DNA from: a virus
Taxonomy: Duplodnaviria > Heunggongvirae > Uroviricota > Caudoviricetes
IMG/VR virus record: IMGVR_UViG_2537561977_000021
Location: 1 to 17,712 of that record
Length of the DNA: 17,712 nt
Direction: 5' to 3' (one strand)
Below the pieces are notes generated by a model. The model did not search any database and was not told where the DNA came from. It saw only the letters and a program-made list of their open reading frames with translations. The position numbers and the translations under genes were made by a program. Positions 2,204 to 17,712 of the stretch are shown one piece after another. Within the stretch, counting starts at the first letter, position 1; every line of letters begins with the position of its first letter.

Positions 2204-2231
2204 ATTCTACTTAACTAAGATTTCCCTGCAA
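2204..2231 (-). promoter_or_regulatory. putative hokD promoter (-35 TTGCAG, 16-bp spacer, -10 TAGAAT)
   Basis: On the minus strand TTGCAG (2231-2226) and TAGAAT (2209-2204) lie about 7 nt upstream of the GGTGCTTGAGGC leader start near 2196. It is intact, 46 bp from the IS600 left end. Confidence 0.4.
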
Positions 2232-2340
2232 ACCGTTTTTGTCCGGCACAGTAAATATCCAACTAAACCAATAGCGTGAGGTAGCCTGAGTTTAACGGAC
2301 ACTCCTTCCTGAAATAGAATGGCATCAGAAGGAGCTAATA

Positions 2341-2643: not shown

Positions 2644-2678
2644 TCGAACAATGGCGACAACAATTTCCCATTGAAGCG

Positions 2679-3497: not shown

Positions 3498-3553
3498 AAA
3501 AAGAACAAATGGTAGTGTCCGCTATTGCCAGTACACCTCAGCGTTCGCTGTAT

Positions 3554-3733
3554 TTACCGCCAGTATTCAATGCACATGACCGCCATGAACACCCCTAAAA
3601 AAAGGGCATTTATATGTCCAAACATTAATATCAAAACATCAATTTTTTCCATATACCTTGCTGTGAAGATGATGGGCATACATGATGCGAACAACCAGAA
3701 CGCAACAAACAAAAACTGCAATGCGTTTTTCAT
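3554..3733 (-). CDS. small hydrophobic protein (59 aa, about two predicted TM helices), hypothetical
   Basis: ATG at 3733 is preceded by GTAGGGGGAATA (strong SD, about 4-nt spacing). Product MKNALQFLFVAFWLFASCMPIIFTARYMEKIDVLILMFGHINALFLGVFMAVMCIEYWR. AT-rich context; stop is 14 bp from the IS600 right end. Confidence 0.35.
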   Translation of the reverse strand: MKNALQFLFVAFWLFASCMPIIFTARYMEKIDVLILMFGHINALFLGVFMAVMCIEYWR

Positions 3734-3945
3734 TATTCCCCCTACAATCAATGTGCAATAACATTTAAACACACCTCAATTTGGCCGGACATATAAATAT
3801 CTAAACCAGAAAAAATCACTTACATAGCGTTACAAACTCTTTAGTCTAAATACTCATCGTAAAACATTCCCCATACTTATCAGTCCGTTCCGCGCCAGGT
3901 AGCTTATTGCCTTATCTGGCAACCTATAATCAGGTTTCCGCTTTT

Positions 3946-4368
3946 TCAGTTGGCTGGTCGTTTAACCGACATAGTTAACCCATTAATCTGGTTGCCGGAT
4001 GCTGGTGGATTTTCGCGTTTTAGTTGTTCATAAAAGTGCACAGCTTTAACCAGTTCTTCTGATGTAACCGGGACTGGTGGGGCAGTGAATAAGGCCTGAA
4101 TTTCATAGTTCGGCCTGTCGTTACAATCCTCTTTTTTCGGTACATATTTCCAGTCACCAACCCACAACTCCCCCTGAGAGTCCATAACACCTTTTTTCAC
4201 GTAGCGATATCGCCACGCTATCGGCTCTGCTTCCAGCGATGCCCGTGCAATTTTGAATAACTCGCCCTCTACTCGCGCCATCCCTGAATTGGGGTGGCAT
4301 TTCGTAATCGCTATTTTTAATTTGGCTTCTTCGATTAATTGTTCTTTTGTTAATTCAGTCATTTTCAT
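3946..4368 (-). CDS. hypothetical prophage protein (nin-region), 140 aa
   Basis: ORF with ATG at 4368 or 4362. Position and N-terminal charged helix suggest an Ead/Ea22-like protein, unconfirmed. A hairpin CCGCC-CTTTCA-GGCGG lies just upstream. Confidence 0.55.
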   Translation of the reverse strand: MKMTELTKEQLIEEAKLKIAITKCHPNSGMARVEGELFKIARASLEAEPIAWRYRYVKKGVMDSQGELWVGDWKYVPKKEDCNDRPNYEIQALFTAPPVPVTSEELVKAVHFYEQLKRENPPASGNQINGLTMSVKRPAN

Positions 4369-4458
4369 TACCGCCCTTTCAGGCGGCCTCCTGATGTTCT
4401 GAGGGTGCAGAAATCCCTCCGGTTAAGGATTAAATTTTATTTGCTGTGCTAAATTTAA

Positions 4459-4914
4459 TTATTCAGTTTTTATTCCTGCTCTCAAAACAGCCTCTGCCAT
4501 TCTGATATCCGGATTTTCTGAAATCATCTTTTCCGGCGAGTCGCAATCACCACCACATTCAGTTATGCGTTCATGACCAAAACGAATTGTGGTTTTGTGC
4601 GCATTAATCATTTGTGTAAGCGCATCTGTCAATTCTGCAATGCGTTTGTCTTTAACTTCCAGCTCTTTCAGTAAAGCCAGTACGTCAGGATCGCTAACAT
4701 CAACGACGGTTACGCGCGATTTCAGGTAATGCTCATCCGCAAAAGTTCGACCAGTTTTAAAATATCCATCATCCCCCTCACCTGTGCAGGCATACACAAT
4801 ATGCGTTCTGGAAAATATGCGCTGTATCGACATTTCATCGCCACAAACAGGACATTCCGGCACCTGAATTGGTGAATAACGTTCACGTAATGCCTGGTAA
4901 TTAGTCTTGCACAC
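4459..4914 (-). CDS. hypothetical prophage protein with CxxC zinc-ribbon-like motifs, 151 aa
   Basis: GTG start at 4914 preceded by AGGAG (7-nt spacing). CPVCG and ECGGDCD motifs plus a coiled-coil-like segment. Overlaps the upstream gene by 14 nt (operon). Confidence 0.55.
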   Translation of the reverse strand: MCKTNYQALRERYSPIQVPECPVCGDEMSIQRIFSRTHIVYACTGEGDDGYFKTGRTFADEHYLKSRVTVVDVSDPDVLALLKELEVKDKRIAELTDALTQMINAHKTTIRFGHERITECGGDCDSPEKMISENPDIRMAEAVLRAGIKTE

Positions 4915-5206
4915 TGGCTGTCTCCTGAAAAATCACCGCATGCCCCAGTTTCTCCGCCAGCGCCAGTTCTGCCTTAGCGCCTGCTGACCGCTGCCAGCCT
5001 TTCAGCATGTAAATCGCATCCACACAACGAATCATCGCCATGCAGATATCCATGTACTGCGGCTGTGTCAGCCCGTCCGGAAGTACTGCCGGGTTTAAGA
5101 CGGTATGCCCTTCCCGTTTCAGTTCCTCTTCCGCATTGTGAAACGCCTCACGGTTGAAATTTTTATACCCGGTCATTGGACCGGCGATATAGACTCTCAC
5201 CCTCAC
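4901..5206 (-). CDS. DUF4406 family protein (nucleoside 2-deoxyribosyltransferase-like fold)
   Basis: 101 aa starting MRVRVYIAGPMTGY...NREAFHNAEEELKREGHTVLNP, typical of DUF4406 as recalled. GTG start overlaps the upstream stop (GTGA) with AGGAGG 7 nt upstream. Confidence 0.7.
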   Translation of the reverse strand: MRVRVYIAGPMTGYKNFNREAFHNAEEELKREGHTVLNPAVLPDGLTQPQYMDICMAMIRCVDAIYMLKGWQRSAGAKAELALAEKLGHAVIFQETASVQD

Positions 5207-5664
5207 GCCATCACCTCCTGAAAATTACCCTGATAAAACGACAATATGCGCTGCATAACTTCGCTCTTCCGGCACTCGCGACAGATTATGTTTAGGCGAC
5301 TGTCGTAGCGACGTATTTCTCCGTCAGGTAATGACCAGATAAGGTCCGGATCAACCGCAGATGGTTTCTTCAGCTTTGCCCTTGAGAGCTTTTTACGGGC
5401 ATTTTGCCAGTCCTTACGCGCCTGTTCAGACGGGAATAACCCGTAACCAGAGTTGTATACATCGCCACTGGCAACCAGCTCTCTGGCCAGAACGCTCATC
5501 AGATATCTTGTTGCCCCAGTTTTAGCTTCCAGTTGTCGTAACGTCTCGCGCCCACTCTGGCGTACGAGTTCAAGAACCTGCCCTTTAATTTTTCCCGCTC
5601 TTCTTGTGTAAAAACTTTTGCCACAAGCCCTCCTGAAAATTACCTCATGACCAGAAATTAACAC
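5203..5664 (-). CDS. hypothetical prophage protein, possible winged-helix DNA-binding, 153 aa
   Basis: ORF translationally coupled to the replication gene (stop TAA 5667-5665, GTG 5664, AGGGGG SD). Function unknown. Confidence 0.5.
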   Translation of the reverse strand: MLISGHEVIFRRACGKSFYTRRAGKIKGQVLELVRQSGRETLRQLEAKTGATRYLMSVLARELVASGDVYNSGYGLFPSEQARKDWQNARKKLSRAKLKKPSAVDPDLIWSLPDGEIRRYDSRLNIICRECRKSEVMQRILSFYQGNFQEVMA

Positions 5665-6606
5665 TTACCCCCTGAAGCCCGGCGGAATTTCGTTATCCGG
5701 TTCAGAAATATGATTCACACAACGCTGGTTGTTCGTGCCGCTTACCGGGAGCAACCAGGGGTTCTCAAAATTCCGGTCCGGTCCAAAAAACGTCGTCGCT
5801 CGCTGAACAAATTCCGTTCCCGTTTTCCCGGTAGCCGCCAGGTATCTTGCGTAACGCCTCACGCCATCCAGCATGGCCTCTGGTGGCACCCCCTCGCGTA
5901 ATCTGGCCTTCCAGGCACTGAAAGCGGATTTCTTCGGGTTTGCCCCGGCACGCAACGGGTACTCCCGCCAGACCTGTTCGAACACATCCGGATAATCCAC
6001 TCGTCCCACAGACTGCCCGGTTTTTTCCGGGACTACCCGATCGGCTTCCCGCTGAATGGCGGAATCGGCTTCAGGCTGCTGCAGTTGGTGTGATTGCTCC
6101 GGCCTTGCGGTCATCACCTGCTGCACAGCGCCCGAATCGGCTTTCAGCGCATACGCTGAATCGGCTTCCGGTGTCGTGCCTGCTGGCTGACCAGGATTGA
6201 CGGTCTGAACATCCCCTGCCTGGTTCGTGGCGATTTTTTCGCCATGAACCATAGTGTTTTTGTCCTGTTCCTGTTCTTTCTCCTGTTCCTGTTCTTGGCT
6301 TCGAAGCCCCTTTAAAGCCCCTTCGAAGCCCCTTACCGTATTTCGGTTGTTATTTCGCCTTACATCCAGATGAAAATCCGTCTTATATCTGTCATAAAAC
6401 GCTGAAAGAAAAGCGTTTTCAGGTAATGACGCATATTCACTCCTGACACCTGCACAACGGTTATCGCCAGGCTTTAACTTTCCCCCAACCTGCCAGGCTG
6501 CCATTTCATGGACCCAGACCATCTCGGAATCATGGTCATAACTGCAAAAACCCACTTCGACAGCCCTTCGAAGCCCCTTCCGGACCAAGCCCGGTTTCAT
6601 GAGCAA
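5665..6606 (-). CDS. phage replication protein, C-terminal portion (phage conserved C-terminal domain, Phg_2220_C-like)
   Basis: 313-aa ORF. C-terminus DVFEQVWREYPLRAGANPKKSAFSAWKARL...YARYLAATGKTG...FFGPDRNFENPW matches the conserved replication-protein C-terminal domain as recalled. Contains an EQEQEKEQEQ linker and the iterons. Frame differs from the N-terminal piece. Confidence 0.6.
   Translation of the reverse strand: MLMKPGLVRKGLRRAVEVGFCSYDHDSEMVWVHEMAAWQVGGKLKPGDNRCAGVRSEYASLPENAFLSAFYDRYKTDFHLDVRRNNNRNTVRGFEGALKGLRSQEQEQEKEQEQDKNTMVHGEKIATNQAGDVQTVNPGQPAGTTPEADSAYALKADSGAVQQVMTARPEQSHQLQQPEADSAIQREADRVVPEKTGQSVGRVDYPDVFEQVWREYPLRAGANPKKSAFSAWKARLREGVPPEAMLDGVRRYARYLAATGKTGTEFVQRATTFFGPDRNFENPWLLPVSGTNNQRCVNHISEPDNEIPPGFRG
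6299..6333. repeat. three tandem 11-bp iteron-like repeats (TTCGAAGCCCC / TTTAAAGCCCC / TTCGAAGCCCC) inside the replication gene
   Basis: Direct tandem repeats read directly from the sequence. A second cluster (TTCGACAGCCC, TTCGAAGCCCC) lies at 6556-6577. Confidence 0.7.
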
Positions 6607-6763
6607 GGTACAAAACCGGCAGGTAATACAGGCCCAGCATGTTTGCGTGAGGGGATGTCATCAGGTAAAAAGCAACCACCTGCGCTTCTGCGCCTGCCTT
6701 TCTGAGTTCTTTCCCCGTTTCTCCCAGCCAGAATCGCGGGGAAACTTTTGCGTAATCACGCAT
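6536..6763 (-). CDS. phage replication protein, N-terminal fragment (separated from downstream part by frameshift)
   Basis: ATG at 6763 preceded by GAGGTGG (about 4-nt spacing). N-terminus MRDYAKVSPRFWLGETGKELRKAG...VVAFYLMTSP is typical of replisome-organizer N-terminal domains. Ends at a TGA inside the second iteron cluster; the +1 frame continues as the 313-aa ORF. Confidence 0.5.
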   Translation of the reverse strand: MRDYAKVSPRFWLGETGKELRKAGAEAQVVAFYLMTSPHANMLGLYYLPVLYLAHETGLGPEGASKGCRSGFLQL

Positions 6764-6984
6764 GTCCACCTCATCTGGTGCCGAACCTTCCTCCGGATAT
6801 AATCTGTGATTCCCCAATCAACAGAACCAGAGGAGGTTCGACATGTCTTTTTTGAAAAGCCTTTATCGGGCTCATATATTAAAAGTTGCAGCAACAAATC
6901 ACTGGCAAGAAGGAACAGATGAAATGTTGCCGGATTACCGGGCATGGCTGCGCGCCGAAACATACCTTCGTCTCGATATGCTGA

Positions 6985-7494
6985 TTAACGATCTTCAAAA
7001 AGAGGCTCCATCCACTCAAACCCTTCAGGGTGTCGGCGCTGTTCGCGTTCTGGTATCTCGCCATAACGCTCTCTCAGTAACTGAAGTGCGTCAGCTTTCT
7101 TTTGCTGAACTGATTTTCTTGCTTCAGCCAGCTCTGGAATCAGTGAATATCCCATCGGAGGTGTTCCGGTATCCGCCCCACGTGAACCAACAGCTACAAG
7201 CTGCACAAGACAACAGGCATGCTGGATTGACTCCCTGCTCAGAGGCTGAATGGGATCATTCTCTGCTGAAGAGATACCAAGATTTGTATAATCCTCAATA
7301 AGCCGGGCGCACGCTTCAGCATCAGCCAGTTTTTTTCTGGTTTCCTTGCGCTGTTCTCTGACGGACAAACGCCAGAGCAGCGCATTGGCTTTATGCATCA
7401 GCCACTCTGCCAGTTCCACATCAGATAAACCGCCACGCCAGATGTGTGGACTGTTTTCGTAAACGCTCAGTGTCAGTTTTTTGTCATTGGTCAT
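6985..7494 (-). CDS. hypothetical early-operon protein, 169 aa
   Basis: ATG at 7494 lies 13 nt after the YdaT-like stop, in the same direction as the cro operon. First-codon-position G enrichment favours this strand. An antisense plus-strand ORF (6843-7301) with a strong RBS overlaps it, so the call is uncertain. Confidence 0.4.
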   Translation of the reverse strand: MTNDKKLTLSVYENSPHIWRGGLSDVELAEWLMHKANALLWRLSVREQRKETRKKLADAEACARLIEDYTNLGISSAENDPIQPLSRESIQHACCLVQLVAVGSRGADTGTPPMGYSLIPELAEARKSVQQKKADALQLLRERYGEIPEREQRRHPEGFEWMEPLFEDR

Positions 7495-7507
7495 ATTTAT
7501 TGCCCCG

Positions 7508-7933
7508 TCAATGCACAGCCAGAGTATTTCCTGCCGGACCACCACGATTCATCTGATCGAACAGAACAATCGCTGATGCAACGAAATCATCGATATCTTT
7601 CACCAGCTGTTCCTGCGTCTCCAGCAGTTCCCGAAAATAAACTGAACTGTGGCTGCGCATTCGGGCCACCAGCGGAGGCGGCATTGCCTTTTCGATCGCT
7701 GGTAACAACGCCTGAATTTTTTTAACAGCATCAGGGGTGTCTTTCTCTATCCAGCGGAAAATTTTCTGGGTATTGCGAGCCAGGGCTTCCGGATGGCTGT
7801 CGTCGTACAGTTCAGGGAACGTCATCCCCAGTTCGAAATAAGTCCGGGCTATCTCAGCCGCCGGAACTTTCTCACCATCAGGATATGCCCATGCATTCAT
7901 CGCCATACGGATGTGCTCATGCTTGATTTTCAT
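7508..7933 (-). CDS. YdaT-like (CII-like) prophage regulatory protein
   Basis: 141 aa starting MKIKHEHIRMAMNAW.... ATGA overlap with the upstream Cro-like gene. Family assignment from recalled YdaT features. Confidence 0.65.
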   Translation of the reverse strand: MKIKHEHIRMAMNAWAYPDGEKVPAAEIARTYFELGMTFPELYDDSHPEALARNTQKIFRWIEKDTPDAVKKIQALLPAIEKAMPPPLVARMRSHSSVYFRELLETQEQLVKDIDDFVASAIVLFDQMNRGGPAGNTLAVH

Positions 7934-8193
7934 GAATCACCCCCCGCCGATGGTTGTGTGTTAGCCTGAAACTCAGCAGGCAAGCCGTCAGTTGGGTTGG
8001 GGTAGGTTTTACTGTCAATCTCATGTGGGGTCACCACCCATCCCGTTGCTTCACACCAACGTAATATTTTTTCTCCTGTAAGTTTTGCACGCCCCGTTAT
8101 AACGTGGCTGACCATCCCCTGGGATGCGCCAACAATCTCAGCAAATGAACTCTGGGTTATATGAAAATGATGCAAATATTCTCCAAGATTCAT
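7930..8193 (-). CDS. YdaS/Cro-like HTH transcriptional regulator (lytic-side repressor)
   Basis: ATG at 8193 preceded by AGGGCGG; product MNLGEYLHHFHITQSSFAEIVGASQGMVSHVITGRAKLTGEKILRW... has an HTH. Divergent from the repressor gene across an operator-bearing intergenic region. The ORF-track start at 8220 is TTG. Confidence 0.75.
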   Translation of the reverse strand: MNLGEYLHHFHITQSSFAEIVGASQGMVSHVITGRAKLTGEKILRWCEATGWVVTPHEIDSKTYPNPTDGLPAEFQANTQPSAGGDS

Positions 8194-8229
8194 AATCCGC
8201 CCTATGTGATGTGTTACCAACGCATAATT

Positions 8230-8270
8230 AATAGCACTGTTATTTTTAAAAGTAAATAGCGATGCTATTT
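8230..8270. promoter_or_regulatory. OR-like operator region: two palindromic sites AATAGC-N3-GYTATT between divergent cro-like and repressor genes
   Basis: Site A AATAGCACTGTTATT (8230-8244); site B AAATAGCGATGCTATTT (8254-8270, perfect 7-bp half-sites). Candidate promoter elements overlap on both strands. Confidence 0.6.
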
Positions 8271-8304
8271 CAAAGTGATTAGCAATCTTATTAGAATTGG
8301 ATGT

Positions 8305-8805
8305 ATGAAAAGAAAATCACTGTCAGACACCGACCTCAACGCCGCCAGAAGACTGAAAGAAATCTGGATGGCAAAGAAATCTCAGTTGGGATTGACTCAG
8401 GAACGTGCGGCGGAAATTATGGGGTTTTCAACACAAGGGGCGGTAAGTCACTACCTAAATGGTCAAACCCCACTAAACCTTGAGGCTGTTCTAAAGTTTG
8501 CTGGCTTACTGAAAGTTCCCCCTGAGTCAATCAGGCCAGACATGGCAGATTTGCTGCAAATTGCAAGGATGTATTGTCGAGAACCACAGCAAGATAACAT
8601 AGTCGCATTACCAGCAGACACAGAACAAACAGAGGATGAACTACCGTTTGCCGTAGAGCCGATGGAACGAGATTTAATCCATACGTTCAGAGCTTTTCCG
8701 AAAGAAGATCAAGAACACATGCTTCAGGAGATGAAAGATAAAAAAGAATCAATGGATCGTACGGTTGCGCGGTGGTTAGCTGCACAAAAAGGCCGTCGCG
8801 CCTAA
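8305..8805 (+). CDS. CI-like prophage repressor / PaaR-like HTH (XRE family) regulator
   Basis: HTH LGLTQERAAEIMGFSTQGAVSHYLNG. Divergent from the cro-like gene and followed by the paaA-parE-like pair. ATG at 8305 (MKRKSL...) lies just downstream of TAGAAT at 8292-8297, so the mRNA may be leaderless; the alternative ATG at 8275 is not excluded. Confidence 0.7.
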   Translation: MKRKSLSDTDLNAARRLKEIWMAKKSQLGLTQERAAEIMGFSTQGAVSHYLNGQTPLNLEAVLKFAGLLKVPPESIRPDMADLLQIARMYCREPQQDNIVALPADTEQTEDELPFAVEPMERDLIHTFRAFPKEDQEHMLQEMKDKKESMDRTVARWLAAQKGRRA

Positions 8806-8824
8806 ATCAGAGGAGATATGTAAA

Positions 8825-9019
8825 ATGAGTACAGTCCTTTCCCCAATGGTTTCAGAATTTGAGACAGTTGAGCAAGAAAATAGTTACAACGAATGGCTGC
8901 GGGCCAAAGTAGCAGCAAGCCTCGCGGATCCCCGCCCGGCGATTCCGCATGATGAGGTAATGGCGGAAATGGAACAAATTATTGCCCAAATTGCTGCTGC
9001 AACTCACAGAGGTGAATAA
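8825..9019 (+). CDS. type II antitoxin, PaaA-like (ParE-associated antitoxin)
   Basis: 64 aa with GAGGAG 8 nt upstream. Sequence ...SPMVSEFETVEQENSYNEWLRAKVAASLADPRPAIPHDEV... resembles PaaA2-type antitoxins as recalled. Stop overlaps the toxin start (TAATG). Confidence 0.75.
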   Translation: MSTVLSPMVSEFETVEQENSYNEWLRAKVAASLADPRPAIPHDEVMAEMEQIIAQIAAATHRGE

Positions 9020-9309
9020 TGTTACCCGTTTTATGGCTACCATCTGCTCGTGATGATTTGCGCCAGATCGTAGCCTACATAGCTAAAGAAAATCCCGCGG
9101 CAGCACGCAGAATGAAAATTCGAATTGAAACATCCGTTTTGCCGCTCACAGAGCATCCTTACCTGTATCCTCCAAGCGAGCGAGTTCTTGGTCTTCGTGA
9201 AATTGTAACTCATCCTAACTACATCATCCTTTACCGAGTAACAGCATCAAGCATAGAAGTAGTAAATATTGTGCATTCTCGAAGACAGTATCCAGGCAAA
9301 AACAGTTAA
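9019..9309 (+). CDS. parE: ParE/RelE-family type II toxin
   Basis: 96 aa with hallmark RelE/ParE motifs (WLPSARDDLRQIVAYIAKENPAAARRM..., YIILYRV..IEVVNIVHSRR). Translationally coupled to the antitoxin. Confidence 0.85.
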   Translation: MLPVLWLPSARDDLRQIVAYIAKENPAAARRMKIRIETSVLPLTEHPYLYPPSERVLGLREIVTHPNYIILYRVTASSIEVVNIVHSRRQYPGKNS

Positions 9310-9325
9310 TTATTCCCGCCGACAG

Positions 9326-9348
9326 AACCACCTTAGGGTGGTTTTTTC
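9326..9348 (+). terminator. Rho-independent terminator ending the repressor-antitoxin-toxin operon
   Basis: AACCACC-TTAG-GGTGGTT followed by TTTTTTC. Confidence 0.7.
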
Positions 9349-9363
9349 TTGCTCCAACAAAAA

Positions 9364-9403
9364 CAATAGCGATGCTATTTACACCAAAAATAATGATGCT
9401 ATT
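9364..9403. promoter_or_regulatory. OL-like operator region: two further copies of the AATAGC-N3-GCTATT operator motif
   Basis: Site C CAATAGCGATGCTATTT (near-identical to site B) and site D AATAATGATGCTATT. They lie about 1.1 kb from the OR-like pair and upstream of the rightward early genes. Confidence 0.6.
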
Positions 9404-9582
9404 GTTTCAGGCGTCAACCCACCCCGCCCCACAGAATGCAGGGCAATACTTCGAGTTACCAGACAGTGGTCAGGGGTTAAGTAGCCAGCCCGAGGCGTAA
9501 GAACATGACGGCAGGGTTCAACTTTAACTATGCAGCAGGTTTTTGTTCCGCTCCCCCGGCGTTAAGGGGAAATGAGGTCAGC

Positions 9583-9735
9583 ATGGATACTATCAATCTT
9601 GGCAACAGCGAATCTCTGGTATGTGGCGTGTTTCCCAACCAGGACGGTACGTTCACCGCGATGACGTATACCAAAAGCAAAACGTTTAAAACCGAAGCTG
9701 GCGCGCGTCGCTGGTTATCCAGAAATACTGACTGA
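9583..9735 (+). CDS. small early protein (51 aa), YdfA-like by size and position
   Basis: ATG at 9583 with GAGG 5 nt upstream; product MDTINLGNSESLVCGVFPNQDGTFTAMTYTKSKTFKTEAGARRWLSRNTD. The ORF also extends to an upstream ATG at 9505 (alternative start). Confidence 0.45.
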   Translation: MDTINLGNSESLVCGVFPNQDGTFTAMTYTKSKTFKTEAGARRWLSRNTD

Positions 9736-9746
9736 TGAGGTTAACG

Positions 9747-10121
9747 ATGGAATTTAAAGATTTACCAACACCTTTCCAGGAAATGGCAGCGAATATAGTT
9801 CGTTCTCAATTGGCGACTCTTGACCTGAGTACCGTAGAAAAAGAAACCATAGATAATATATCCGGTAACGTGCGCCGTGCCTTTATCGGGTTGTACGAAG
9901 AGAAGCAGCACTCTGATAAGCATGATTCCTCTGAAAAATACTTCCTGGAATTAATGGATATCATTAACAAGGGGTTTGGTTTGTTGATGGAAAAGAAAGG
10001 GATTCGAATAGAACCCCTTAAAAACCATTTTACTGAGTGCAACATTAATTCCTGTGATTTAAAGCATCCCACTCCAGATGGGAAAGTTGAAGCCAACTAT
10101 AAAATATCAATTAATCATTAA
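9747..10121 (+). CDS. hypothetical protein, AT-rich moron gene (124 aa)
   Basis: ATG at 9747 with GAGG 6 nt upstream (alternative ATG at 9735). Low-GC coding sequence with no recognised motif. Confidence 0.55.
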   Translation: MEFKDLPTPFQEMAANIVRSQLATLDLSTVEKETIDNISGNVRRAFIGLYEEKQHSDKHDSSEKYFLELMDIINKGFGLLMEKKGIRIEPLKNHFTECNINSCDLKHPTPDGKVEANYKISINH

Positions 10122-10125
10122 GTTC

Positions 10126-10150
10126 TCCACGGGTGAGGTGGAGAACATGC
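10126..10150. terminator. stem-loop between convergent genes (GTTCTCCAC-GGGTGAG-GTGGAGAAC), possible bidirectional terminator
   Basis: Perfect 9-bp stem with a second weaker hairpin at about 10153-10184. No clean T-tract, so terminator function is tentative. Confidence 0.35.
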
Positions 10151-10199
10151 GCCGGACACGGATAAATCTCCGGCATGCTCTTTAACATTCTGGATATTC

Positions 10200-10646
10200 C
10201 TAACCACAAAGAAATCGCATCAATTTAGATTTTGTGGGCAGCTTCTCTTGTTGTTCGATGGAAACGCCTATTTTGATCTGTGTTTTTAAGATCGCAATAT
10301 CTTTAAGTGATGACCAAATATGATTATCCGTTTTTTCCAGAATTTTTAACTGCATTTTCAATTCAGAATCAGAATATTTTTCTGCATCATCAAAAAGCTG
10401 CAAATATTCTGCGGATTTTCTCATGGCGTTACCTGACTTTTGTCCGAATCCATAAATCGTTTGGACGGTTGCGATCACAACAATAAAAACGCCAGAAATT
10501 TCCGGAATGAATCCGCCAATGACAGATGAACCGAGGATAATACTCACTACTGAGAGAAGTTTATCGAGACGACCAGTCGCTACCGAAAATAGTTGCTCAA
10601 GAAAATAGCCATATAAAATTCTGTCAAGAATATCATCCCGGTCCAT
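10200..10646 (-). CDS. two-TM membrane protein, candidate superinfection-exclusion (SieB-like position) or abortive-infection effector
   Basis: 148 aa with ATG at 10646 and AGGTGA 6 nt upstream. Hydrophobic segments LSVVSIILGSSVIGGF and VFIVVIATVQTIYGF precede a charged C-terminal domain. Low GC; opposite orientation to the surrounding early-left genes. Confidence 0.6.
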   Translation of the reverse strand: MDRDDILDRILYGYFLEQLFSVATGRLDKLLSVVSIILGSSVIGGFIPEISGVFIVVIATVQTIYGFGQKSGNAMRKSAEYLQLFDDAEKYSDSELKMQLKILEKTDNHIWSSLKDIAILKTQIKIGVSIEQQEKLPTKSKLMRFLCG

Positions 10647-10652
10647 ACATCA

Positions 10653-10799
10653 TCACCTACTTGTTTGGTTGTTGCTGTTCCCCCTCTCCTCCGAAGGAGC
10701 TGGAGATGGTTTTGGTCGAATGTTTTTCTCTGGTATGTGATCCCAGACTGTTTTATGTGTCGAATTGCCACCACCTGCTTGTGCTCTTTGCTCTGTCAT
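10653..10799 (-). CDS. small hydrophilic protein (48 aa), hypothetical, coupled to the downstream membrane protein gene
   Basis: ATG at 10799 with AAGGA 6 nt upstream. Its stop TGA lies within the SD of the membrane-protein gene. Weak call. Confidence 0.3.
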   Translation of the reverse strand: MTEQRAQAGGGNSTHKTVWDHIPEKNIRPKPSPAPSEERGNSNNQTSR

Positions 10800-11025
10800 A
10801 TGATTTCCTTGGATCGTTGGGGATATCCAGATTATACAGATTTCTTGTCGTTGGGGAATGACAGGAACCACCTCGCCTGACGTGGTTAAAAGCAGGCACA
10901 CAACACGAAAGCGCACGGCGAAGTCATTTCTCCCTCTGTTGCGTGTCGCCGGTATCTTCGACCGTGCGCTTCCGGTTGTGGCACTCCGCGAAATGGCGCG
11001 GCGGTAAGTATGGCGGGGTTATCCT

Positions 11026-12319
11026 CTGAGGGATCCCCAGAAAATTTAGTAAACCATTATCATATTGGTATACCGTTGCTGTAGAACTTTCAGCCCTGCG
11101 TCAAGTGACAGTGTGTTTAGTATGAGTGGAGAATGTCGAATCACATTCTCCGCCAGTTTTAATAACGAGATGACTCGCCTGTGCTTCACTGTATTTGCCT
11201 GATATTTATGATGTATCCCTTTGTTTTCCAGGCTGAAACCGCTTAACCACATAATGATACTGGCTAATGTTGCGATCAGACTCAATACCGTGACCCGCCC
11301 GGATGAATGACTGGCACCAAACCGTAGTCCAAATCCCCAGCGAGGATTTTTTTCATCCCTGAAATTTTGCTCAATTTGCATTCTACGGCTGTATAATTTC
11401 ATTACCTGTTTTGGCGAGAACTCAGTACTGTTTGTGAAAATAAACCATGGTGATTTCCCGGCAGTACGAGCTTTAGCCGTCACCGATGGTCTGGTTGCTC
11501 TTTCCTTCGAGCGTTTAAATCTACGACCTTTAGGCTTACTTTTATAAAGATAAAAATGCCCTTCATGTTGTGCATTTTTATCTCGACCCAGCAGGCCTTC
11601 ACCTAAATAAATTGCTGTCGTTGATGCTTTTGTGCCTGAGTCCGACACCTTTTCCCAGCCATTACCAACATTGTAATAATGATTGCCCAGTACCCGGCAA
11701 ATATAGGTCCAGCCACGGGAGCGGAGCTGTTGGAACCATCGCCCCTGAAAACCGGCATCTGTAATAACAATGACATCAGTCCCGGGGGAAAAGCACTCAG
11801 CAAGCGATTCCAGAAAACGCTCATGTACATCTGCATTCGCTGTCTGTGATGATGGAACGACACAACTCATCAACGGTAAAGAACGCCCGTCACATGCCAG
11901 GCTTGCCCGCAAAAGCTGAAAACGAGAGGCATGATAAGCACTCTAGTCAATGAGTATCACAACACGAGACATTCCCCGCGTAATCTTTTGGGTAATTCGC
12001 TGAAAAATGGTGGAAACCTCATTTTGCAAATGTCGATTCCCCAACAGTCGATCCACCCGCTTTATTTTGTTTTTAACTGATGCCGTACCGGTTAAATGAC
12101 GCCCGATACTGGTAAGTGTGAGGGAAGCGCCATTTATTACAGCATTAGTTGCGTCAATCAGTGATTTTTGACGGTAAAGATGCAAAGGGGCCAGTATGTT
12201 GTTAAGGAAATTTTGGCATAATGAACGTGCAGGCATAGTGGTGATCTCCTTGAAATTGTTAGCACAATCAATTAGATCACATCTCACTATGCCTGTCTTG
12301 TTTTCTGGGGATTCCTCAG
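11026..12319 (-). mobile_element. IS10-like insertion sequence (IS4 family), about 1294 bp, transposase inactivated
   Basis: Terminal inverted repeats CTGAGGGATCCCCAGAAAA (left) and TTTTCTGGGGATTCCTCAG (right). Flanking direct repeat GGGTTATCCT (11016-11025 and 12320-12329), consistent with a 9-bp target duplication; boundaries uncertain by 1 bp. Confidence 0.8.
11046..12236 (-). pseudogene. IS10-like transposase interrupted by an in-frame amber (TAG) codon
   Basis: The ORFs 11943-12347 and 11046-11912 are in the same frame, separated by TAG at 11945-11943. N-terminal motif KNKIKRVDRLLGNRHL and the C-terminal part align with IS10 transposase as recalled; the TAG sits where IS10 has Trp (TGG). 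Likely start is ATG at 12236 (MPARSL...). Confidence 0.75.
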
Positions 12320-12407
12320 GGGTTATCCTTACCCCCACAGGTAGCACCGGGTTGTCAGGTTGACCATACGCCCGAGTGACAACCCCGCCACAACATCTCC
12401 ATGTTGA

Positions 12408-12466
12408 GGCTTGTGTGAGACCTTTGGCGGCATCAGTTTAATTGCTGGCTGATGTCCGCCCTTTTT
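12408..12466 (+). ncRNA. dicF: DicF-like small RNA with intrinsic terminator
   Basis: ...TTGTGTGAGACCTTTGGCGGCATCAGTTTAATTGCTGGCTGATGTCCGCCCTTTTT resembles E. coli DicF (recalled as UUUCUGGUGACGUUUGGCGGUAUCAGUUUUACUCCGUGACUGCUCUGCCGCCC). Hairpin GGCGGCATCAG/CTGATGTCCGCC plus T5. dicB and ydfD follow downstream as in Qin. 5' end approximate; 5' region diverges. Confidence 0.55.
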
Positions 12467-12467
12467 A

Positions 12468-12637
12468 AAGTGAATTTTGTGATGCGGTGAATGCGGCTAA
12501 GCGCACGCGGAACAGTTAAAAAAGTGATAGGCACTCCGTATTTGTTTTATGGAGTTGGTTTCCCTGTATTCCGGCGTTAATTGTTAACTGGTTAACGTCA
12601 CCTGGAGGCACCAGGCACCGCATCACAAAATTCACTT
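12468..12637. repeat. pair of 22-bp inverted repeats (AAGTGAATTTTGTGATGCGGTG) flanking about 126 bp
   Basis: Plus 12468-12489 matches the reverse complement of 12616-12637 (21-22 of 22 positions). Internal palindromes CCTGG-AGGCA-CCAGG and CATCACA...TGTGATG. Lies immediately downstream of the DicF-like terminator. Confidence 0.6.
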
Positions 12638-12766
12638 CTGTGATGAAAGGTGAGAGAAAATGTTGAATGTAGCTATTGAAAACCAGAACGGGTGGAATTA
12701 TAGTGCACCTGCACCTCATAAAACGGGTGCCGGGATTGGCCTCCTGTTAATCACATTGGTGCCTGA

Positions 12767-12791
12767 ACACGCACCAAAAGCGTGTTTTTTG
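12767..12791 (+). terminator. Rho-independent terminator (ACACGC-ACCAAAA-GCGTGT + T6)
   Basis: Hairpin plus TTTTTT read directly. It lies inside the long ORF-track frame 12660-13508, arguing that Rha starts downstream. Confidence 0.55.
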
Positions 12792-12950
12792 TTGCCTGCA
12801 TTTCATCATTCAATGGCAGCTCAGGCGGGAGCTTCTCACGAAGCGCCGGGTTCCGATGTGACCGGTAAGGCCAATCCCGTCTGGGCTACCACCAATCGGA
12901 TTGGCCTCTGCGGTGGTGGCAGTACTGCTTTCACATCGGAGGATGCCGTT

Positions 12951-13508
12951 ATGGCTACTATCACTACCCTTTCTCACCCTTGTGTAACCATCGAAAATGG
13001 TCGCGCTGTCACCACATCTGTCGCCATTGCGGAATTCTTCCGCAAAATGCATAAAGACGTTCTGAAAAAAATAGACAACCTAGAATGCTCTGAGAAATTT
13101 AGCGGGCGCAATTTTGCGCCCGCCGAATATCTTGATGAGCAAGGCAAAAAACGCCCAATGTACCAGATCACCAAAAACGGCTTCGTTTTCCTGGTGATGG
13201 GATTCACTGGCAAAAAAGCCGCTGCATTTAAAGAAGCCTACATTGCTGAGTTCGATCGCATGGAGGCCGAACTGCGCCAGAATAACACCCCACCCACTGA
13301 CAAAATAATTCCAGGCGATGGCCGCACCCTGGTTGTTCACTTCGACGAACGCGGCAACATCAGATTCACCGAAACCGTTCCTGATGGCGCACGGGTCTGT
13401 ACCATGGAGACTTTCCGGTTTTATCTGGAAGAACAGGGATGGACTCTTGTTAACCGAGGCGCAATTAAAAATATGACTGTAGAGCAATTACTCAAAATTC
13501 ATTGTTGA
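12951..13508 (+). CDS. Rha-family phage regulatory protein (Phage_pRha domain)
   Basis: ATG at 12951 with GGAGGA 7 nt upstream. Motifs VTTSVAIAEFFRKMHKDVLKKIDNL...YQITKNGFVFLVMGFTGKKAAAFKEAYIAEFDRMEAEL match the Rha family as recalled. The ORF-track start at 12660 is rejected in favour of this one. Confidence 0.7.
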   Translation: MATITTLSHPCVTIENGRAVTTSVAIAEFFRKMHKDVLKKIDNLECSEKFSGRNFAPAEYLDEQGKKRPMYQITKNGFVFLVMGFTGKKAAAFKEAYIAEFDRMEAELRQNNTPPTDKIIPGDGRTLVVHFDERGNIRFTETVPDGARVCTMETFRFYLEEQGWTLVNRGAIKNMTVEQLLKIHC

Positions 13509-13518
13509 GGACGCGATA

Positions 13519-13707
13519 ATGGAAACGTTATTACCAAACGTTAATACGTCTGAAGGTTGTTTTGAAATTGGTGTCACTATCAGTAACACGGTATTTACTG
13601 AAGATGCCATTAACAAGAGAAAACACGAACGGGAGTCATTAAATAAAATATGCATTGTTTCAATGCTGGCTCGTTTGCGTCTGATGCAAAAAGGATGCTG
13701 GCGATGA
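13519..13707 (+). CDS. dicB: cell-division inhibitor DicB (62 aa)
   Basis: METLLPNVNTSEGCFEIGVTISNTVFTEDAINKRKHERESLNKICIVSMLARLRLMQKGCWR is near-identical to E. coli DicB as recalled. GAGGA 8 nt upstream. Lies downstream of the DicF-like RNA as in Qin. Confidence 0.8.
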   Translation: METLLPNVNTSEGCFEIGVTISNTVFTEDAINKRKHERESLNKICIVSMLARLRLMQKGCWR

Positions 13708-13892
13708 ATACAGCATTTGCACTTATTCTGACGGTTTTTCTTGTTTCCGGAGAGCCAGTTGATATTGCAGTCAGTGTTCACAGAACAATGCAGGAATGTA
13801 TGGCCGCAGCAACCGAACAGAAAATTCCAGGCAACTGTTATCCGGTCGATAAAGTTATTCACCAGGATAACGAAATCCCGGCAGGATTTTAA
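13704..13892 (+). CDS. ydfD: YdfD-like small protein with N-terminal hydrophobic segment (Qin prophage lysis-associated protein)
   Basis: MNTAFALILTVFLVSGEPVDIAVSVHRTMQECMAAATEQKIPGNCYPVDKVIHQDNEIPAGF matches YdfD as recalled. AAGGA 9 nt upstream. Overlaps the dicB stop (ATGA). Confidence 0.7.
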   Translation: MNTAFALILTVFLVSGEPVDIAVSVHRTMQECMAAATEQKIPGNCYPVDKVIHQDNEIPAGF

Positions 13893-14125
13893 AACAGCAC
13901 CGTAATAAATATCCAGTTTCATTCTTATATGTCAGCAATGGCAGAGATTTGTTCACCCTTAAATCTGTGATGAGGTTTATCAATAATGAGCACTGATAAA
14001 GAAGAATTTGCACTATATTGCGAAGCAAAAAATGACAAAGTAAGAAAACGCCTGGGAATTAAAGGTGTTTTTACTGGACTACAGCAAAAAAATTATCTGT
14101 TGCAATCTCCCGCTGCATTACCGCA

Positions 14126-16426
14126 ATGGATGACAACGATTATGATGAAGACGACTTTAAAAAACCCGTCCGCGTCAATTTGCCCGTTGTTGACGACCTT
14201 CCGCCAGAAGGCGTGTTTGATACTGAATTCTGCAACCGCTATGAAAAAGGCGGGAAAGATGGCATCACAATGACATTTATCGGCCCTTCCCCCTCTGTTC
14301 AGGACAAACCAGCCAGCACTGACAATACCAACATCAACGGCGAAGACATGACTGAGATTGAGGAGAGCATGCTTCTGCCTGTCTCCGGTCAGGAACTGCC
14401 CATTCGTTGGCTTGCTCAACACGGCAGCGAAAAACCAGTAACGCACGTTTCACGCGACGAACTCCAGGCATTACACATTGCACGGGCTGAAGAACTACCG
14501 GCTGTTACTGCCCTGGCTATTTCGCATAAAACCAGTCTGCTCGACTCGCTGGAGATTCGCGACCTCCACAAACTGGTTCGTGACACTGACAAAGTTTTCC
14601 CTAATCCTGGTAATTCAGACCTGGGACTAATAACTGCTTTTTTCGAAGCATACCTAGACGCTGACTACACTGATCGGGGTCTGCTGACAAAAGAGTGGAT
14701 GAAAGGAAATCGTGTTTCACGCATCACCCGCACGGCTTCCGGTGCTAATGCTGGTGGTGGGAACAAAACCGATCGCAATCCGAATTTAGTACACACCCTC
14801 GACACACTGGATGTGGAGATTGCAGCAGCCACACTTCCGATGGATTTTAATATTTATGAAATTCCGGGCAGCGTTTATCGTCGCGCAAAAGAAGTAGTCC
14901 TGAAAAAAGAAAGTCCGTTCAAAGAATGGTCCGCAGCACTTCGTGCAACCCCGGGTATTCTGGACTATTCCCGCGCCGCTATTTTTGCACTTATCCGAAG
15001 CGCACACCCTGAATTTTATCACTACCCGGGACGCCTTCAGGGGTATATCAACGCCTATTTGACGGAAACTGATCACGAGAACCCCAGCAAGGAAACTCTC
15101 ACAGCTGCCCGGCATACGCCGGAAAAAGATATCCTGGAAGAAATTAACCGCGAGGTGGTTACTGAGCGTGAAACAGAAGAAGAAAAACCACAACCATCTG
15201 ACGCAATGGCAGGTGAACAGGCAACAACTGAAACAATGGAACCGGATACAACTGAACATTGCCAGAACGCGCAGTCGCTGGATGCTCAGTCGCAGGTGAG
15301 TTCCGCTAACCAAGTAAAAGTCACCGCTGACGAAGTAAACAAAATTATGCAGGCAGCCAATATCAGCCAGCCTGACGCCGATAAGTTACTTGCTGTATCG
15401 CGTGGTGAATTTGTTGAGGGGATTAGCGACCCTAATGATCCGAAATGGGTCAAGGGGATCCAGACTCGCGATTCTGTGAACCAGAACCAGCATGAATCGG
15501 AACGGAACGACCAAAAAGCGGAACAAAACAGCCCAAATGCGTTACAAAACGAGCCAGAAACGAAACAATCCGAACCAGTAGCGCAACAGGAACCGGAAAA
15601 AGTCTGCACCGCCTGCGGTCAGAGCGGTGGCGGCAACTGCCCTGATTGTGGCGCGGTGATGGGCGACGCAACATACCAGGAAACATTCGATGAAGAGAAT
15701 CAGGTTGAAGTTCAGGAAAATGATCCGGAAGAAATGGAAGGCGCTGAACATCCACACAAGGAGAACCCTGGCGGCAATCAGCATCACGCCAGCGATAATA
15801 AAACTGGCGAGGCGACAGATCCCTTAATTAAGGTGAATGGTCATCATAAGCTCACATCCACCAGCAGAGCGGGGATTCATCTGATGATCGACCTTGAAAC
15901 CATGGGAAAAAATCCCGATGCCCCGATTATCTCAATAGGCGCAATATTTTTCGATCCACAAACCGGAGATATGGGACCGGAATTTAGCAAGACCATCGAT
16001 CTGGATACTGCTGGCGGAGTCATTGATCGTGACGTCATTAAATGGTGGCTGAAGCAATCACGTGAAGCGCAGTCTGCCATTATGACCGATGAAATCCCGT
16101 TAGATGATGCACTACTGCAATTGCGGGAATTTATCGACGAAAACTCCGGTGAATTTTTTGTTCAGGTCTGGGGTAATGGGGCCAACTTCGACAACGTGAT
16201 TTTACGCCGTTCATACGAACGACAGGGTATCCCCTGCCCGTGGCGCTACTGCAACGATCGCGATGTACGCACAATCGTTGAGCTGGGGAAAGCCATAGAC
16301 TTCGATGCCAGAACTGCTATCCCATTCGAAGGTGAGCGCCATAATGCACTTGATGACGCTCGTTACCAGGCAAAATACGTTTCAGCTATCTGGCAAAAAC
16401 TGATCCCGAGTCAGGCTGATTTTTAA
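14126..16426 (+). CDS. large prophage exonuclease: acidic N-terminal region, central Cys-rich zinc-ribbon-like motif, C-terminal DEDDh (DnaQ-like) 3'-5' exonuclease domain
   Basis: 766-aa ORF. C-terminal motifs IDLETMG (Exo I), WGNGANFD (Exo II), HNALDDARYQAKY (Exo III, DEDDh); CTACGQSGGGNCPDCG in the middle. The true N-terminus may lie in the overlapping -1 frame ORF 13986-14273, which has GAGG 10 nt upstream. Confidence 0.75.
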   Translation: MDDNDYDEDDFKKPVRVNLPVVDDLPPEGVFDTEFCNRYEKGGKDGITMTFIGPSPSVQDKPASTDNTNINGEDMTEIEESMLLPVSGQELPIRWLAQHGSEKPVTHVSRDELQALHIARAEELPAVTALAISHKTSLLDSLEIRDLHKLVRDTDKVFPNPGNSDLGLITAFFEAYLDADYTDRGLLTKEWMKGNRVSRITRTASGANAGGGNKTDRNPNLVHTLDTLDVEIAAATLPMDFNIYEIPGSVYRRAKEVVLKKESPFKEWSAALRATPGILDYSRAAIFALIRSAHPEFYHYPGRLQGYINAYLTETDHENPSKETLTAARHTPEKDILEEINREVVTERETEEEKPQPSDAMAGEQATTETMEPDTTEHCQNAQSLDAQSQVSSANQVKVTADEVNKIMQAANISQPDADKLLAVSRGEFVEGISDPNDPKWVKGIQTRDSVNQNQHESERNDQKAEQNSPNALQNEPETKQSEPVAQQEPEKVCTACGQSGGGNCPDCGAVMGDATYQETFDEENQVEVQENDPEEMEGAEHPHKENPGGNQHHASDNKTGEATDPLIKVNGHHKLTSTSRAGIHLMIDLETMGKNPDAPIISIGAIFFDPQTGDMGPEFSKTIDLDTAGGVIDRDVIKWWLKQSREAQSAIMTDEIPLDDALLQLREFIDENSGEFFVQVWGNGANFDNVILRRSYERQGIPCPWRYCNDRDVRTIVELGKAIDFDARTAIPFEGERHNALDDARYQAKYVSAIWQKLIPSQADF

Positions 16427-16441
16427 TGTTCAACCCTAATT

Positions 16442-16467
16442 GCCGCTAACCGTATATAGTTAGCGGC
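16442..16467. promoter_or_regulatory. perfect 9-bp-stem inverted repeat (GCCGCTAAC-N8-GTTAGCGGC) upstream of xis-int
   Basis: Read directly; no adjacent T-tract on either strand, so more likely a protein-binding or regulatory site than a terminator. Confidence 0.4.
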
Positions 16468-16484
16468 GGTTATGAGATATAGCT

Positions 16485-16688
16485 ATGAGCAGCTTATTTT
16501 TAACCGAAGATGAATTGCTAATATTAACGGGCTGCAAATATGCAAGCCACCAGCGAAAATGGTTAATGGAAAACGGGCTTCCGTTCTATACCAATCGTAG
16601 TGGCAAACCGATTGTCAGCCGGGATCTATTTACCTGCAATAAAACTTTACCACCACGCGAGGTAGAGCCGAATTTTGGTGCGATCTGA
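16485..16688 (+). CDS. excisionase-like protein (DUF4224-like) upstream of integrase
   Basis: 67 aa starting MSSLFLTEDELLILTGCKYASHQRKWLMENGLPFYTNRSGKPIV..., typical of DUF4224 excisionase-like proteins as recalled. Stop overlaps the int start (TGATG). Confidence 0.65.
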   Translation: MSSLFLTEDELLILTGCKYASHQRKWLMENGLPFYTNRSGKPIVSRDLFTCNKTLPPREVEPNFGAI

Positions 16689-17712
16689 TGGGAAGACGAA
16701 GGAAAAATCCTGAACACGAAAAATTACCTCCAAATGTATACCCAAATAAATATAGTTATGTATGGAAACCAACATCCAGAGAATCTGTCACACTAACCGC
16801 CATCAAGGATGGTTTAGCTGCTTTATGGAAAAAGTATGAGGAAACTGTAAATAATCGCGATCGTGCAATGACATTCGGTCGCTTGTGGGAAAAATTCCTC
16901 GCCAGCGCCTATTACAGTGACCTTAGTCCAAGAACACAAAAAGATTATCTGCAACATCAAAAAAAGTTGCTTGCCGTATTCGGTAAGGTACCAGCGGATT
17001 CCATAAAACCAGAACACATCCGTCGATACATGGACAAAAGAGGGGAGCAGAGTAAAACGCAAGCCAACCATGAAAAAAGCAGTATGTCCCGTGTTTACAG
17101 TTGGGGGTATGAGCGAGGGTACGTGAAGGCTAACCCATGTGCAGGTGTAAGTAAATTCAAGGCCAAAAACCGCGAACGATATGTAACCGACAAAGAATAC
17201 CAGGCAGTATTAAGCGTTGCACCTCTTCCTGTTTTTATCGCAATGGAAATTGCCTATCTGTGTGCAGCGAGGGTTTCCGATGTGTTATCGCTGAAATGGG
17301 AACAGATTGGAAACGACGGGATATTCATCCAGCAAGGGAAAACCGGAAAAAACAGATAAAAGCATGGAGTCCACGATTACAGGCAGCGATCGAAAAAGCA
17401 AAACAGTTACCAAAATCTGCCTATGTGATCAGCAATCAATACGGCAACCGATATATGTACAAAGGCTTTAACGAAATGTGGGTAGATGCAAGAAATCGTG
17501 CTGGAAAAATTTCAGGTATTTTAACCGACTTCACCTTTCATGATCTGAAGGCGAAAGGAATTTCAGACTATGAAGGAAGCAGCCGGGATAAGCAACTTTT
17601 CTCTGGTCACAAAACCGAAGGGCAAGTGCTAATCTATGACAGGAAGGTTAAAGTTTCACCAACACTTGATGTCCCGTTACCTGAAAATATTCCAAGAAAA
17701 TATTCCAAGTAA
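16688..17712 (+). pseudogene. lambda-family tyrosine integrase, disrupted by a frameshift in an A6 tract
   Basis: The N-terminal ORF 16688-17359 (MGRRRKNPEHEKLPPNVY...GKTGKNR*) and C-terminal ORF 17260-17712 (...FHDLKAKG...GHKTEGQVLIYDRK, catalytic His/Tyr region) lie in adjacent frames that switch at AAAAAA 17347-17352. An A7 would give the continuous ...GKTGKKQIKAWSP.... Confidence 0.8.

Follow-up and report, generated by a model that had tools for sequence, protein, structure and literature searches.

SieB exclusion brings macromolecular synthesis to a stop midway through infection (PMC10461980), and translation of sieB in phage P22 is controlled by a 105-nucleotide (nt) antisense RNA, sas (PMC12197685, PMC7067206; Ranade and Poteete 1993, as cited in PMC10461980). 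Proteins of the SLATT type are predicted to be toxins that form pores, and DRT10 requires its SLATT gene for both defense and toxicity (bioRxiv 10.64898/2026.04.29.721553). Here, we compare with these systems a two-gene unit, p48-p148, found on the minus strand of a 17,712-nt stretch of Caudoviricetes DNA (IMG/VR record IMGVR_UViG_2537561977_000021, positions 1 to 17,712), the whole of which we call the window. We put the probability at roughly 0.5 that positions 10176-10887 constitute a mobile antisense cassette in the sieB niche of a Rac/Qin-like Escherichia coli prophage, in which p148 serves as a membrane effector under p48 regulation. Its function would most likely be that of a prophage-expressed effector for superinfection exclusion or abortive infection. 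An earlier note on this DNA had described the block as one AT-rich, three-gene moron in a sieB-like position; its parts are as follows.

9747-10121, plus strand: p124, 124 amino acids (aa), a gene of the early-left operon with the ribosome-binding site GAGG
10122-10146 and 10151-10174, between the convergent genes: two backbone hairpins, GTTCTCCAC/GTGGAGAAC and GCCGGA/TCCGGC
10176-10887, minus strand, 712 base pairs (bp): antisense accessory cassette (moron) of promoter, p48 and p148, delimited by its blastn junctions
10200-10646, minus strand: p148, 148 aa, predicted inner-membrane protein in which a two-helix hairpin (transmembrane helices at about 29-47 and 50-66) is followed by a helical C-terminal domain on the cytoplasmic side
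10658-10653, minus strand: Shine-Dalgarno AGGTGA of p148, overlapping the p48 stop codon
10653-10799, minus strand: p48, 48 aa, hydrophilic and proline-rich, core motif H-[ILM]-P-E-K-[ND]-[IV]-R-P-x-P-x-P
10810-10805, minus strand: Shine-Dalgarno AAGGAA of p48
10863-10823, minus strand: sieB-type promoter region with a perfect -10 TATAAT (10836-10831) and a weak -35-like sequence (about 10863-10855)
10856-10848 and 10822-10814, minus strand: direct repeat CCCCAACGA flanking the -10; the lambda/P22 equivalent is CCCCTACAG
10866-10887, minus strand: inverted repeat AACCAC-N10-GTGGTT with an invariant TCAGGC in the loop, 5' of the -35, shared by lambda, P22 and every enteric cassette locus

All three open reading frames (ORFs) lie at the coordinates given in the earlier note, and the antisense two-gene unit has the ribosome-binding sites and the coupled stop and Shine-Dalgarno that it had claimed, with the p148 ATG (10646) beginning 6 nt after the p48 stop codon. 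The extent of the unit was resolved by a blastn comparison of the window with ydfB/ydfC-type relatives, phage vB_EcoM-606R7 (L008) and PPompW_EH2246 (L014). Their homology covers 10121-10175, breaks, and restarts at 10888-11022. The gap of 10176-10887 therefore represents a discrete insertion of p148, p48 and 88 bp upstream, and the ydfB/ydfC-carrying related prophages lack the cassette, so that the comparison with relatives proposed in the earlier note spoke for the two-gene unit. Insertion boundaries, an opposite strand and a homologous annotated promoter, the marks of a moron, are all present, and we infer independent transcription.

We show that the AT-rich block is two independent, unlinked modules, the antisense cassette and p124, and not one moron. 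The GC minimum of the whole window does fall here (0.365-0.375 in 400-nt windows at about 9950-10650, against a mean of 0.475), and both p124 (0.379) and p148 (0.374) are AT-rich, but p48 is not (0.476). The hairpins noted between the convergent genes are likewise real (folding z-scores of -2.3 on the plus and -3.3 on the minus strand) but belong to the backbone rather than to the cassette, because both are kept in L008 and L014, neither of which carries it; they were discarded as a cassette part on that ground. Judging by its sequence, p124 is a mosaic early-operon gene in a variable slot of its own, unrelated to the cassette. Its DNA at 9737-9884 matches the 5' part of a 135-aa PPompW_EH2246 gene at 85% identity and the remainder is unique, residues 1-57 alone are common to the PPompW and Stx-phage proteins, and in PHROGs only phrog_6937 matches the whole protein, other phrogs matching residues 1-63. 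No Pfam or NCBIfam family, structure or defense (PADLOC) match was found for it, and PHROGs yielded nothing but families without an assigned function. Among 37 IMG/VR viral loci whose p148 is at least 91% identical, ydfA is present in 37 and dicB in 33, and p124 in 9. In E. coli SCU-104 (L007), ydfA is followed directly by the hairpins and the cassette. We therefore rejected p124 as a cassette member, since its strand is that of the early operon, its variable slot is a separate one, and it is absent from L007 and from 28 of the 37 cassette-bearing viral loci.

The cassette occurs in 94 of 5426 complete E. coli genomes (1.7%), chromosomal in all of them, and in each phage context examined its strand is opposite to that of the flanking phage genes. 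Those contexts are diverse:

ydfA-dicF slot: the window, L001 and L007 (Rac/Qin-like)
P2-like prophages, with cox on one side and the early genes on the other: L002, L005 and L010-L012
adjoining KilR: L003
between a cI-like repressor and yfdP/DUF2303: L004 and L009
Providencia phage PSTNGR2lys, cI-bet interval of the early-left region: L015
phage EKP1, gap flanked by the Q antiterminator and the holin: L016
RecT region: L058

The sieB-like position proposed in the earlier note finds strong backing in the upstream DNA. When the 104 nt 5' of p48 were compared with 50,697 phage records (blastn), P22 aligned with 79.5% identity over 72 nt, and the match overlaps the annotated 'sieB: promoter' (29690-29720), just 5' of the annotated sieB RNA start (29727). 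Eight enteric loci share an upstream block consisting of TGCCTG, AACCAC-N10-GTGGTT and then CCCCAAC...TATAAT...CCCCAAC, and a pattern search of all fetched loci located the same block directly 5' of lambda sieB. Carried over by alignment from the P22 sieB RNA start, the predicted transcription start falls at about 10823-10824, which would leave a leader of about 24 nt to the p48 ATG. Because a DicF-like small RNA lies at 12412-12461, the cassette is placed inside a ydfA-dicF-dicB early-left operon. It thus sits antisense within the early-left operon behind a sieB-type promoter, as expected of the sieB niche, and in lambda, too, sieB runs antisense to the pL operon.

Lying upstream of the -35, the inverted repeat is absent from the cassette mRNA, but the opposing early-left transcript would contain it, and by analogy with P22 the repeat may belong to a sas-like RNA. 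The Providencia copy of the repeat has a different, yet self-complementary stem. On paper, the invariant GCCTG (10897-10893) is complementary to the invariant loop CAGGC (10879-10875) on the minus strand, allowing a possible pseudoknot-like pairing of five pairs, all invariant. As a structured RNA, the upstream inverted repeat was rejected: RNAalifold picks only the invariant GCCUG/CAGGC pairing, and the hand-drawn stem has one covarying pair.

Unrelated kinds of antisense cargo follow the sieB-type upstream element, which is made up of the inverted repeat, the weak promoter and CCCCAAC/CCCCTAC repeats. In lambda and P22 the cargo is SieB, in the window p48-p148, in Shigella phage SfIV a 144-aa ORF (SfIV_36), in PhiR29_2 a 242-aa ORF, and in PPompW_EH2246 a remnant. 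The element has the look of a conserved promoter socket whose cargo can be exchanged, and its copies lie at:

10823-10900, minus strand: window
495-580: L013
450-530: L059
1801-1884: L060
1801-1884: L061
2200-2237: L014

What the socket carries here is a membrane protein. The hydropathy of p148 shows a single hydrophobic stretch (residues 29-66) that P48-E49 breaks into two short helices. About 80 charged residues come after it, and basic residues flank the stretch on both sides, which suggests an N-in/C-in topology. An AlphaFold2 model built from 110 sequences (predicted local distance difference test, pLDDT, 87.9), which replaced a 6-sequence model (pLDDT 62.7), places helices at 3-44, 48-65, 67-86, 93-105, 113-126 and 138-147. 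The layout read from the letters in the earlier note, two transmembrane helices and then a charged domain, was thus recovered by both hydropathy and structure prediction, and it agrees with the SLATT core fold, in which two transmembrane helices stand between N- and C-terminal helices.

The protein belongs to a sizeable family. Close homologues are found in E. coli and Salmonella, and a profile search of 1.84 billion representatives returned 144 at E<1e-3, all stand-alone proteins of about 150-190 aa, making a family of at least 144 clusters at 50% identity. Named sources are E. coli, Salmonella, Citrobacter and Vibrio, and intact ORFs extend down to about 20% identity across Enterobacteriaceae, Vibrio and others. 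A locus search from the 6-sequence alignment found none in a one-genome-per-species collection. No mention of these proteins was found in publications, DefensePredictor supplements and RefSeq-accession full text included, with Brenes and Laub 2025 lying outside that search. The gene of one distant family member (P0045; L054-L056, 1-4486) overlaps a 1669-aa Type ISP restriction-modification gene at the latter's 3' end; with a 606-aa gene and an AAA_23/SMC-like gene downstream and no small upstream ORF, it stands in a defense-island context.

Profile searches, one of the checks that the earlier note had put forward, gave a SLATT-like signal for p148 and neither SieB homology nor a curated Abi or defense match above noise. 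Over 110 family members, NCBIfam SLATT_4 matched 45 at E<=0.1 (best 1.2e-5), SLATT_1 14 and SLATT_fungal 2, and the next family 6 members. In PADLOC-DB v2, none of the three proteins of the block had a significant defense-model match, and p124 and p48 had none at all; the RTasSLATT model matched p148 weakly (E=2.3e-4, residues 31-141), as did the CBASS '2TM Effector' the family consensus (E=5.6e-4). Structure prediction pointed the same way, as the top Foldseek matches of the p148 model in BFVD were mostly annotated SLATT (probabilities of about 0.97-1.0, TM-scores of 0.5-0.7), and searches of PDB structures gave generic helical matches only. Because the weak signals from PADLOC, NCBIfam and AlphaFold2/Foldseek agree, we relate p148 to SLATT: it is at most a distant relative, a divergent unnamed branch nearest SLATT_4 that lies below every curated threshold. 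Homology to SieB, by contrast, was looked for and is missing. PF14163 did not match p148, the positive controls being lambda SieB (1e-29) and P22 SieB (4e-29), and hhalign of the family profile against lambda SieB gave a probability of 0.3%, so p148 was ruled out as a SieB homologue and falls outside that family. The internal methionines M75, M98 and M143 are unconserved in the family alignment.

The second component, p48, was left unannotated by PGAP in the closest genome. A small ORF nevertheless recurs 5' of p148 homologues in nine divergent loci, with partner identity down to 24%, and in all nine tabulated loci this short hydrophilic ORF stops 3-11 nt ahead of the membrane gene:

window: MTEQRAQAGGGNSTHKTVWDHIPEKNIRPKPSPAPSEERGNSNNQTSR
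L002: contains REHIPEKNVRPTPPPPVP
L003: contains RKHIPEKDIRTVTPPPPPPPP
L004: contains RKHMPEKDIRPTPAPPP
L005: contains WEHLPEKNIRPTPMPPPPP
L009: contains HSPAYQRPAPKPEPKP
Providencia phage PSTNGR2lys: contains NHLNPKPIRPTPPPP
phage EKP1: contains TPTPPPP
L058 (membrane partner 24% identical): contains HAPRMPAPPPPP

The conserved partner across the family is hence a proline-rich peptide of about 33-54 aa. In pairwise codon comparisons, differences followed the order position 3 > 1 > 2 in nearly every pair, which is a coding pattern. Together with the 144 representatives of the p148 family, this recurrence and these substitutions show the unit to be more than chance; ORF conservation was a point on which the earlier note had made its proposal depend. 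One lineage (L010, L011) carries at the place of p48 a 39-aa acidic ORF with no clear similarity. Most small-ORF variants contain runs of at least three prolines, and there is no PP run in the window (PKPSPAPS) or in L009. Polyproline ribosome stalling was therefore rejected as a universal feature of the small ORF, and stalling dependent on elongation factor P is not a general explanation, because the window variant lacks a run of three or more prolines.

The proposed mechanism is weakest where p48 is concerned. Gene order and coupling fit an antitoxin, and this is what the layout suggests. In six IMG/VR loci (L026-L028, L030, L031 and L053), however, a 118-nt deletion between two AGGTG repeats, about 35 nt 5' of the p148 start, has removed p48 codons 10-48. 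In five of the six, p148 is full-length, with 143-146 of 148 residues identical; in L053 it is truncated to 119 aa. Because these natural deletions spare p148, p48 is more likely a regulator (a sensor, a gate, or a leader ORF that sets p148 translation) than an essential antitoxin. No DNA-binding or other known antitoxin domain was found in p48 with Pfam, PADLOC, PHROGs or NCBIfam.

We propose the following mechanism. In the lysogen, the cassette would be transcribed from its own promoter, and p148 would reside in the inner membrane with both termini inside. Upon a signal from an incoming phage, p148 would oligomerize and permeabilize or depolarize the membrane, and the damage would halt the infection, as proposed for SLATT effectors and as in the SieB phenotype. 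The p48 peptide may act as a cytoplasmic, disordered regulatory partner, either as a gate or sensor or as a leader ORF setting p148 translation. When the resident prophage is induced, the early-left transcript would run antisense through the cassette and might silence it, as sas does on P22 sieB, such that the resident phage would be spared.

Several observations weigh against this proposal. The p148 of the window matches no Pfam or NCBIfam model at E<=1. No significant Pfam SLATT match was obtained for any of the 110 family members or for the family consensus, nor does any other Pfam family match the window protein, these members or the consensus. The E-values of the SLATT matches in Foldseek are just 7e-3 to 0.1, and all SLATT evidence is sub-threshold or structural. 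None of the canonical SLATT partners (SMODS, SLOG, TIR, reverse transcriptase) is present in the window or in the loci examined. A generic sigma-70 promoter scan did not call the cassette promoter, whose -35 is poor, as in P22, and the covariation in the inverted repeat is slight, one pair changing from C-G to U-A in two sequences. The five natural p48 deletions with intact p148 blur the role of p48, and the antisense self-immunity step is conjectured from geometry and the P22 analogy.

Of the rival explanations, the one we rate highest holds that p148 is an exclusion protein that blocks injection, like P22 SieA, HK97 gp15 and T4 Imm, keeping phage DNA out and the cell unharmed. In its favor are the small size of p148, its predicted place in the inner membrane, its plausible expression from the prophage and its accessory location. 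We nevertheless consider this explanation unlikely, since the sequence and fold signals of p148 lead to effectors of the SLATT and 2TM kinds, for which pore formation is predicted, and since its promoter is of the sieB type, sieB being an abortive exclusion gene rather than an injection block (PMC10461980).

The pair could also be a toxin-antitoxin or addiction module, in which p48 is a labile antitoxin and p148 a constitutive toxin that stabilizes the prophage or aborts infection upon host shut-off. A small gene placed first, its stop overlapping the Shine-Dalgarno of the next, is the classic layout, and the pair co-occurs across divergent loci. An indispensable antitoxin is hard to reconcile with the five deletion loci that have lost p48 codons 10-48 and kept p148 at full length, with the missing antitoxin domain, or with the P0045 homologue, whose overlap with the restriction gene leaves no space for a small upstream ORF. 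The natural deletions thus weaken p48 as an obligate antitoxin, and we regard an addiction module as quite doubtful.

A role in the phage's own life cycle, such as holin-like activity or lysis timing, membrane remodeling or lysogeny control, seems very unlikely to us. The two-helix hairpin with a charged C-terminal tail does resemble class II holins, and in phage EKP1 the pair adjoins the holin-lysozyme-Rz genes. Even there, however, as in every phage context examined, it is opposite in strand to the lytic operons, it is dispensable and absent from most relatives, and its sieB-type promoter is of a kind expressed from the prophage. That the cassette is a decaying or neutral passenger with no current function, as its rarity (1.7% of genomes) and some truncated or deletion-bearing copies might be taken to mean, is hardly credible for a family with intact ORFs down to about 20% identity in Enterobacteriaceae, Vibrio and others, with coding-type substitutions in the small ORF and with conserved promoter and Shine-Dalgarno signals.

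Taking p48-p148 as a prophage-expressed exclusion or abortive-infection cassette, we tentatively raise a wider reading, a possible one that we hold with considerable doubt. The region 5' of sieB, with its short leader, weak promoter and inverted repeat, may be a plug-in platform of general use for expressing antisense prophage cargo, with antisense self-immunity built in; p48-p148 would then be a new exclusion system of two components, a SLATT-like pore gated by a proline-rich micropeptide. That peptide could be a protein sensor or, in the majority of variants with PPP or longer, a leader dependent on elongation factor P or on translation capacity, tying pore synthesis to host translation. If the cassette is confirmed in its proposed role, a compact two-helix effector plus micropeptide would join the prophage-encoded defense repertoire, and a currently annotation-less protein family of at least 144 clusters would gain a name. 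A SLATT-type effector acting without a nucleotide-signaling or reverse-transcriptase partner would raise the question of how such pores are triggered. Furthermore, the sieB promoter region would become a hotspot at which to search lambdoid and P2-like prophages for new exclusion genes, and the antisense self-immunity logic of sieB/esc/sas would reach past a single gene.

In gene content, the window corresponds to the early region of a lambdoid E. coli prophage of the Rac/Qin/PPompW type, and the same gene order is found in the best-matching E. coli genomes, which end in dicF-dicB-exo-xis-int beside ompW. Around the cassette and p124 lie:

minus strand of the window: replication genes, a YdaT-like gene and a Cro-like gene
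8275-8805, plus strand: helix-turn-helix repressor-like gene
8825-9309, plus strand: relB/relE pair
9583-9735, plus strand: ydfA (DUF1391)
11026-12317, minus strand: IS10-like insertion sequence, between the cassette and DicF
12412-12461, plus strand: DicF-like small RNA (45.4 bits, E=6e-8; short of the score of 48 that Rfam sets for gathering)
plus strand, after the DicF-like RNA: Ash/Rha-domain gene, exonuclease VIII and integrase

The IS10-like element lies 139 bp past the cassette and has no contact with it; it has a target duplication GGTTATCC (8-9 bp) and a transposase that points toward the cassette and is split into two ORFs (134 and 288 aa). Lying between the cassette and DicF, it probably interrupts early-left transcription. 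The space from the repressor-like gene to ydfA holds an inserted toxin-antitoxin pair of the relB/relE(parE) type, with no copy there in several related prophages (L007, L008 and L014), and a strong match to the sok antisense RNA (118.9 bits, 2022-2197, minus strand) indicates a hok/sok-type module in the prophage. We noticed a partial STnc100 match 3' of the DicF-like RNA (12473-12629), and the homology of dicB-type relatives to the window stops at 12634. Within the Ash/Rha ORF (12660-13508, plus strand), isrK (12711-12790) and a C4 antisense RNA (12809-12896) both exceed their Rfam gathering scores; this ORF with its two RNAs resembles a P1/P7-type c4-antirepressor module and stands at the expected place of dicB.

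Set against known systems, p148 would, as proposed for it, be a small, prophage-expressed inner-membrane protector like P22 SieA, HK97 gp15 and T4 Imm, compared here by description (PMC10461980). No sequence relationship to these proteins was detected, however, and they leave the cell unharmed. In its proposed mode of action it resembles the CBASS 2TM effectors and lambda RexB, which depolarizes the membrane, in line with the weak PADLOC match of the consensus, although the cassette has no cyclase or RexA-like sensor and the profile matches are far from the significance of membership. The fold layout is that of SLATT (2TM effectors that associate with SMODS and SLOG; the closest NCBIfam model is SLATT_4, NF033632; one example is the SLATT-5 effector of DRT10/UG17), which supplies the most frequent sub-threshold profile match of the family and most top Foldseek matches, and SLATT proteins are tied to mobile elements and defense. 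Unlike in SLATT systems, p148 matches no curated model and is accompanied by no nucleotide-signaling enzyme, TIR or reverse transcriptase; its partner is a proline-rich peptide, and the unit is a prophage cassette with a sieB-type promoter. In location, the counterpart is SieB/Esc/sas of P22 and lambda (PF14163). Although p148 is not homologous to SieB, lacks a conserved internal Esc-like start, and comes with a second ORF where SieB and Esc are two products of one frame, the cassette occupies the same niche, within and antisense to the early-left operon, behind a homologous promoter region that includes the upstream inverted repeat, and encodes a protein of similar size and layout, with N-terminal membrane helices and a cytoplasmic C-terminal part.

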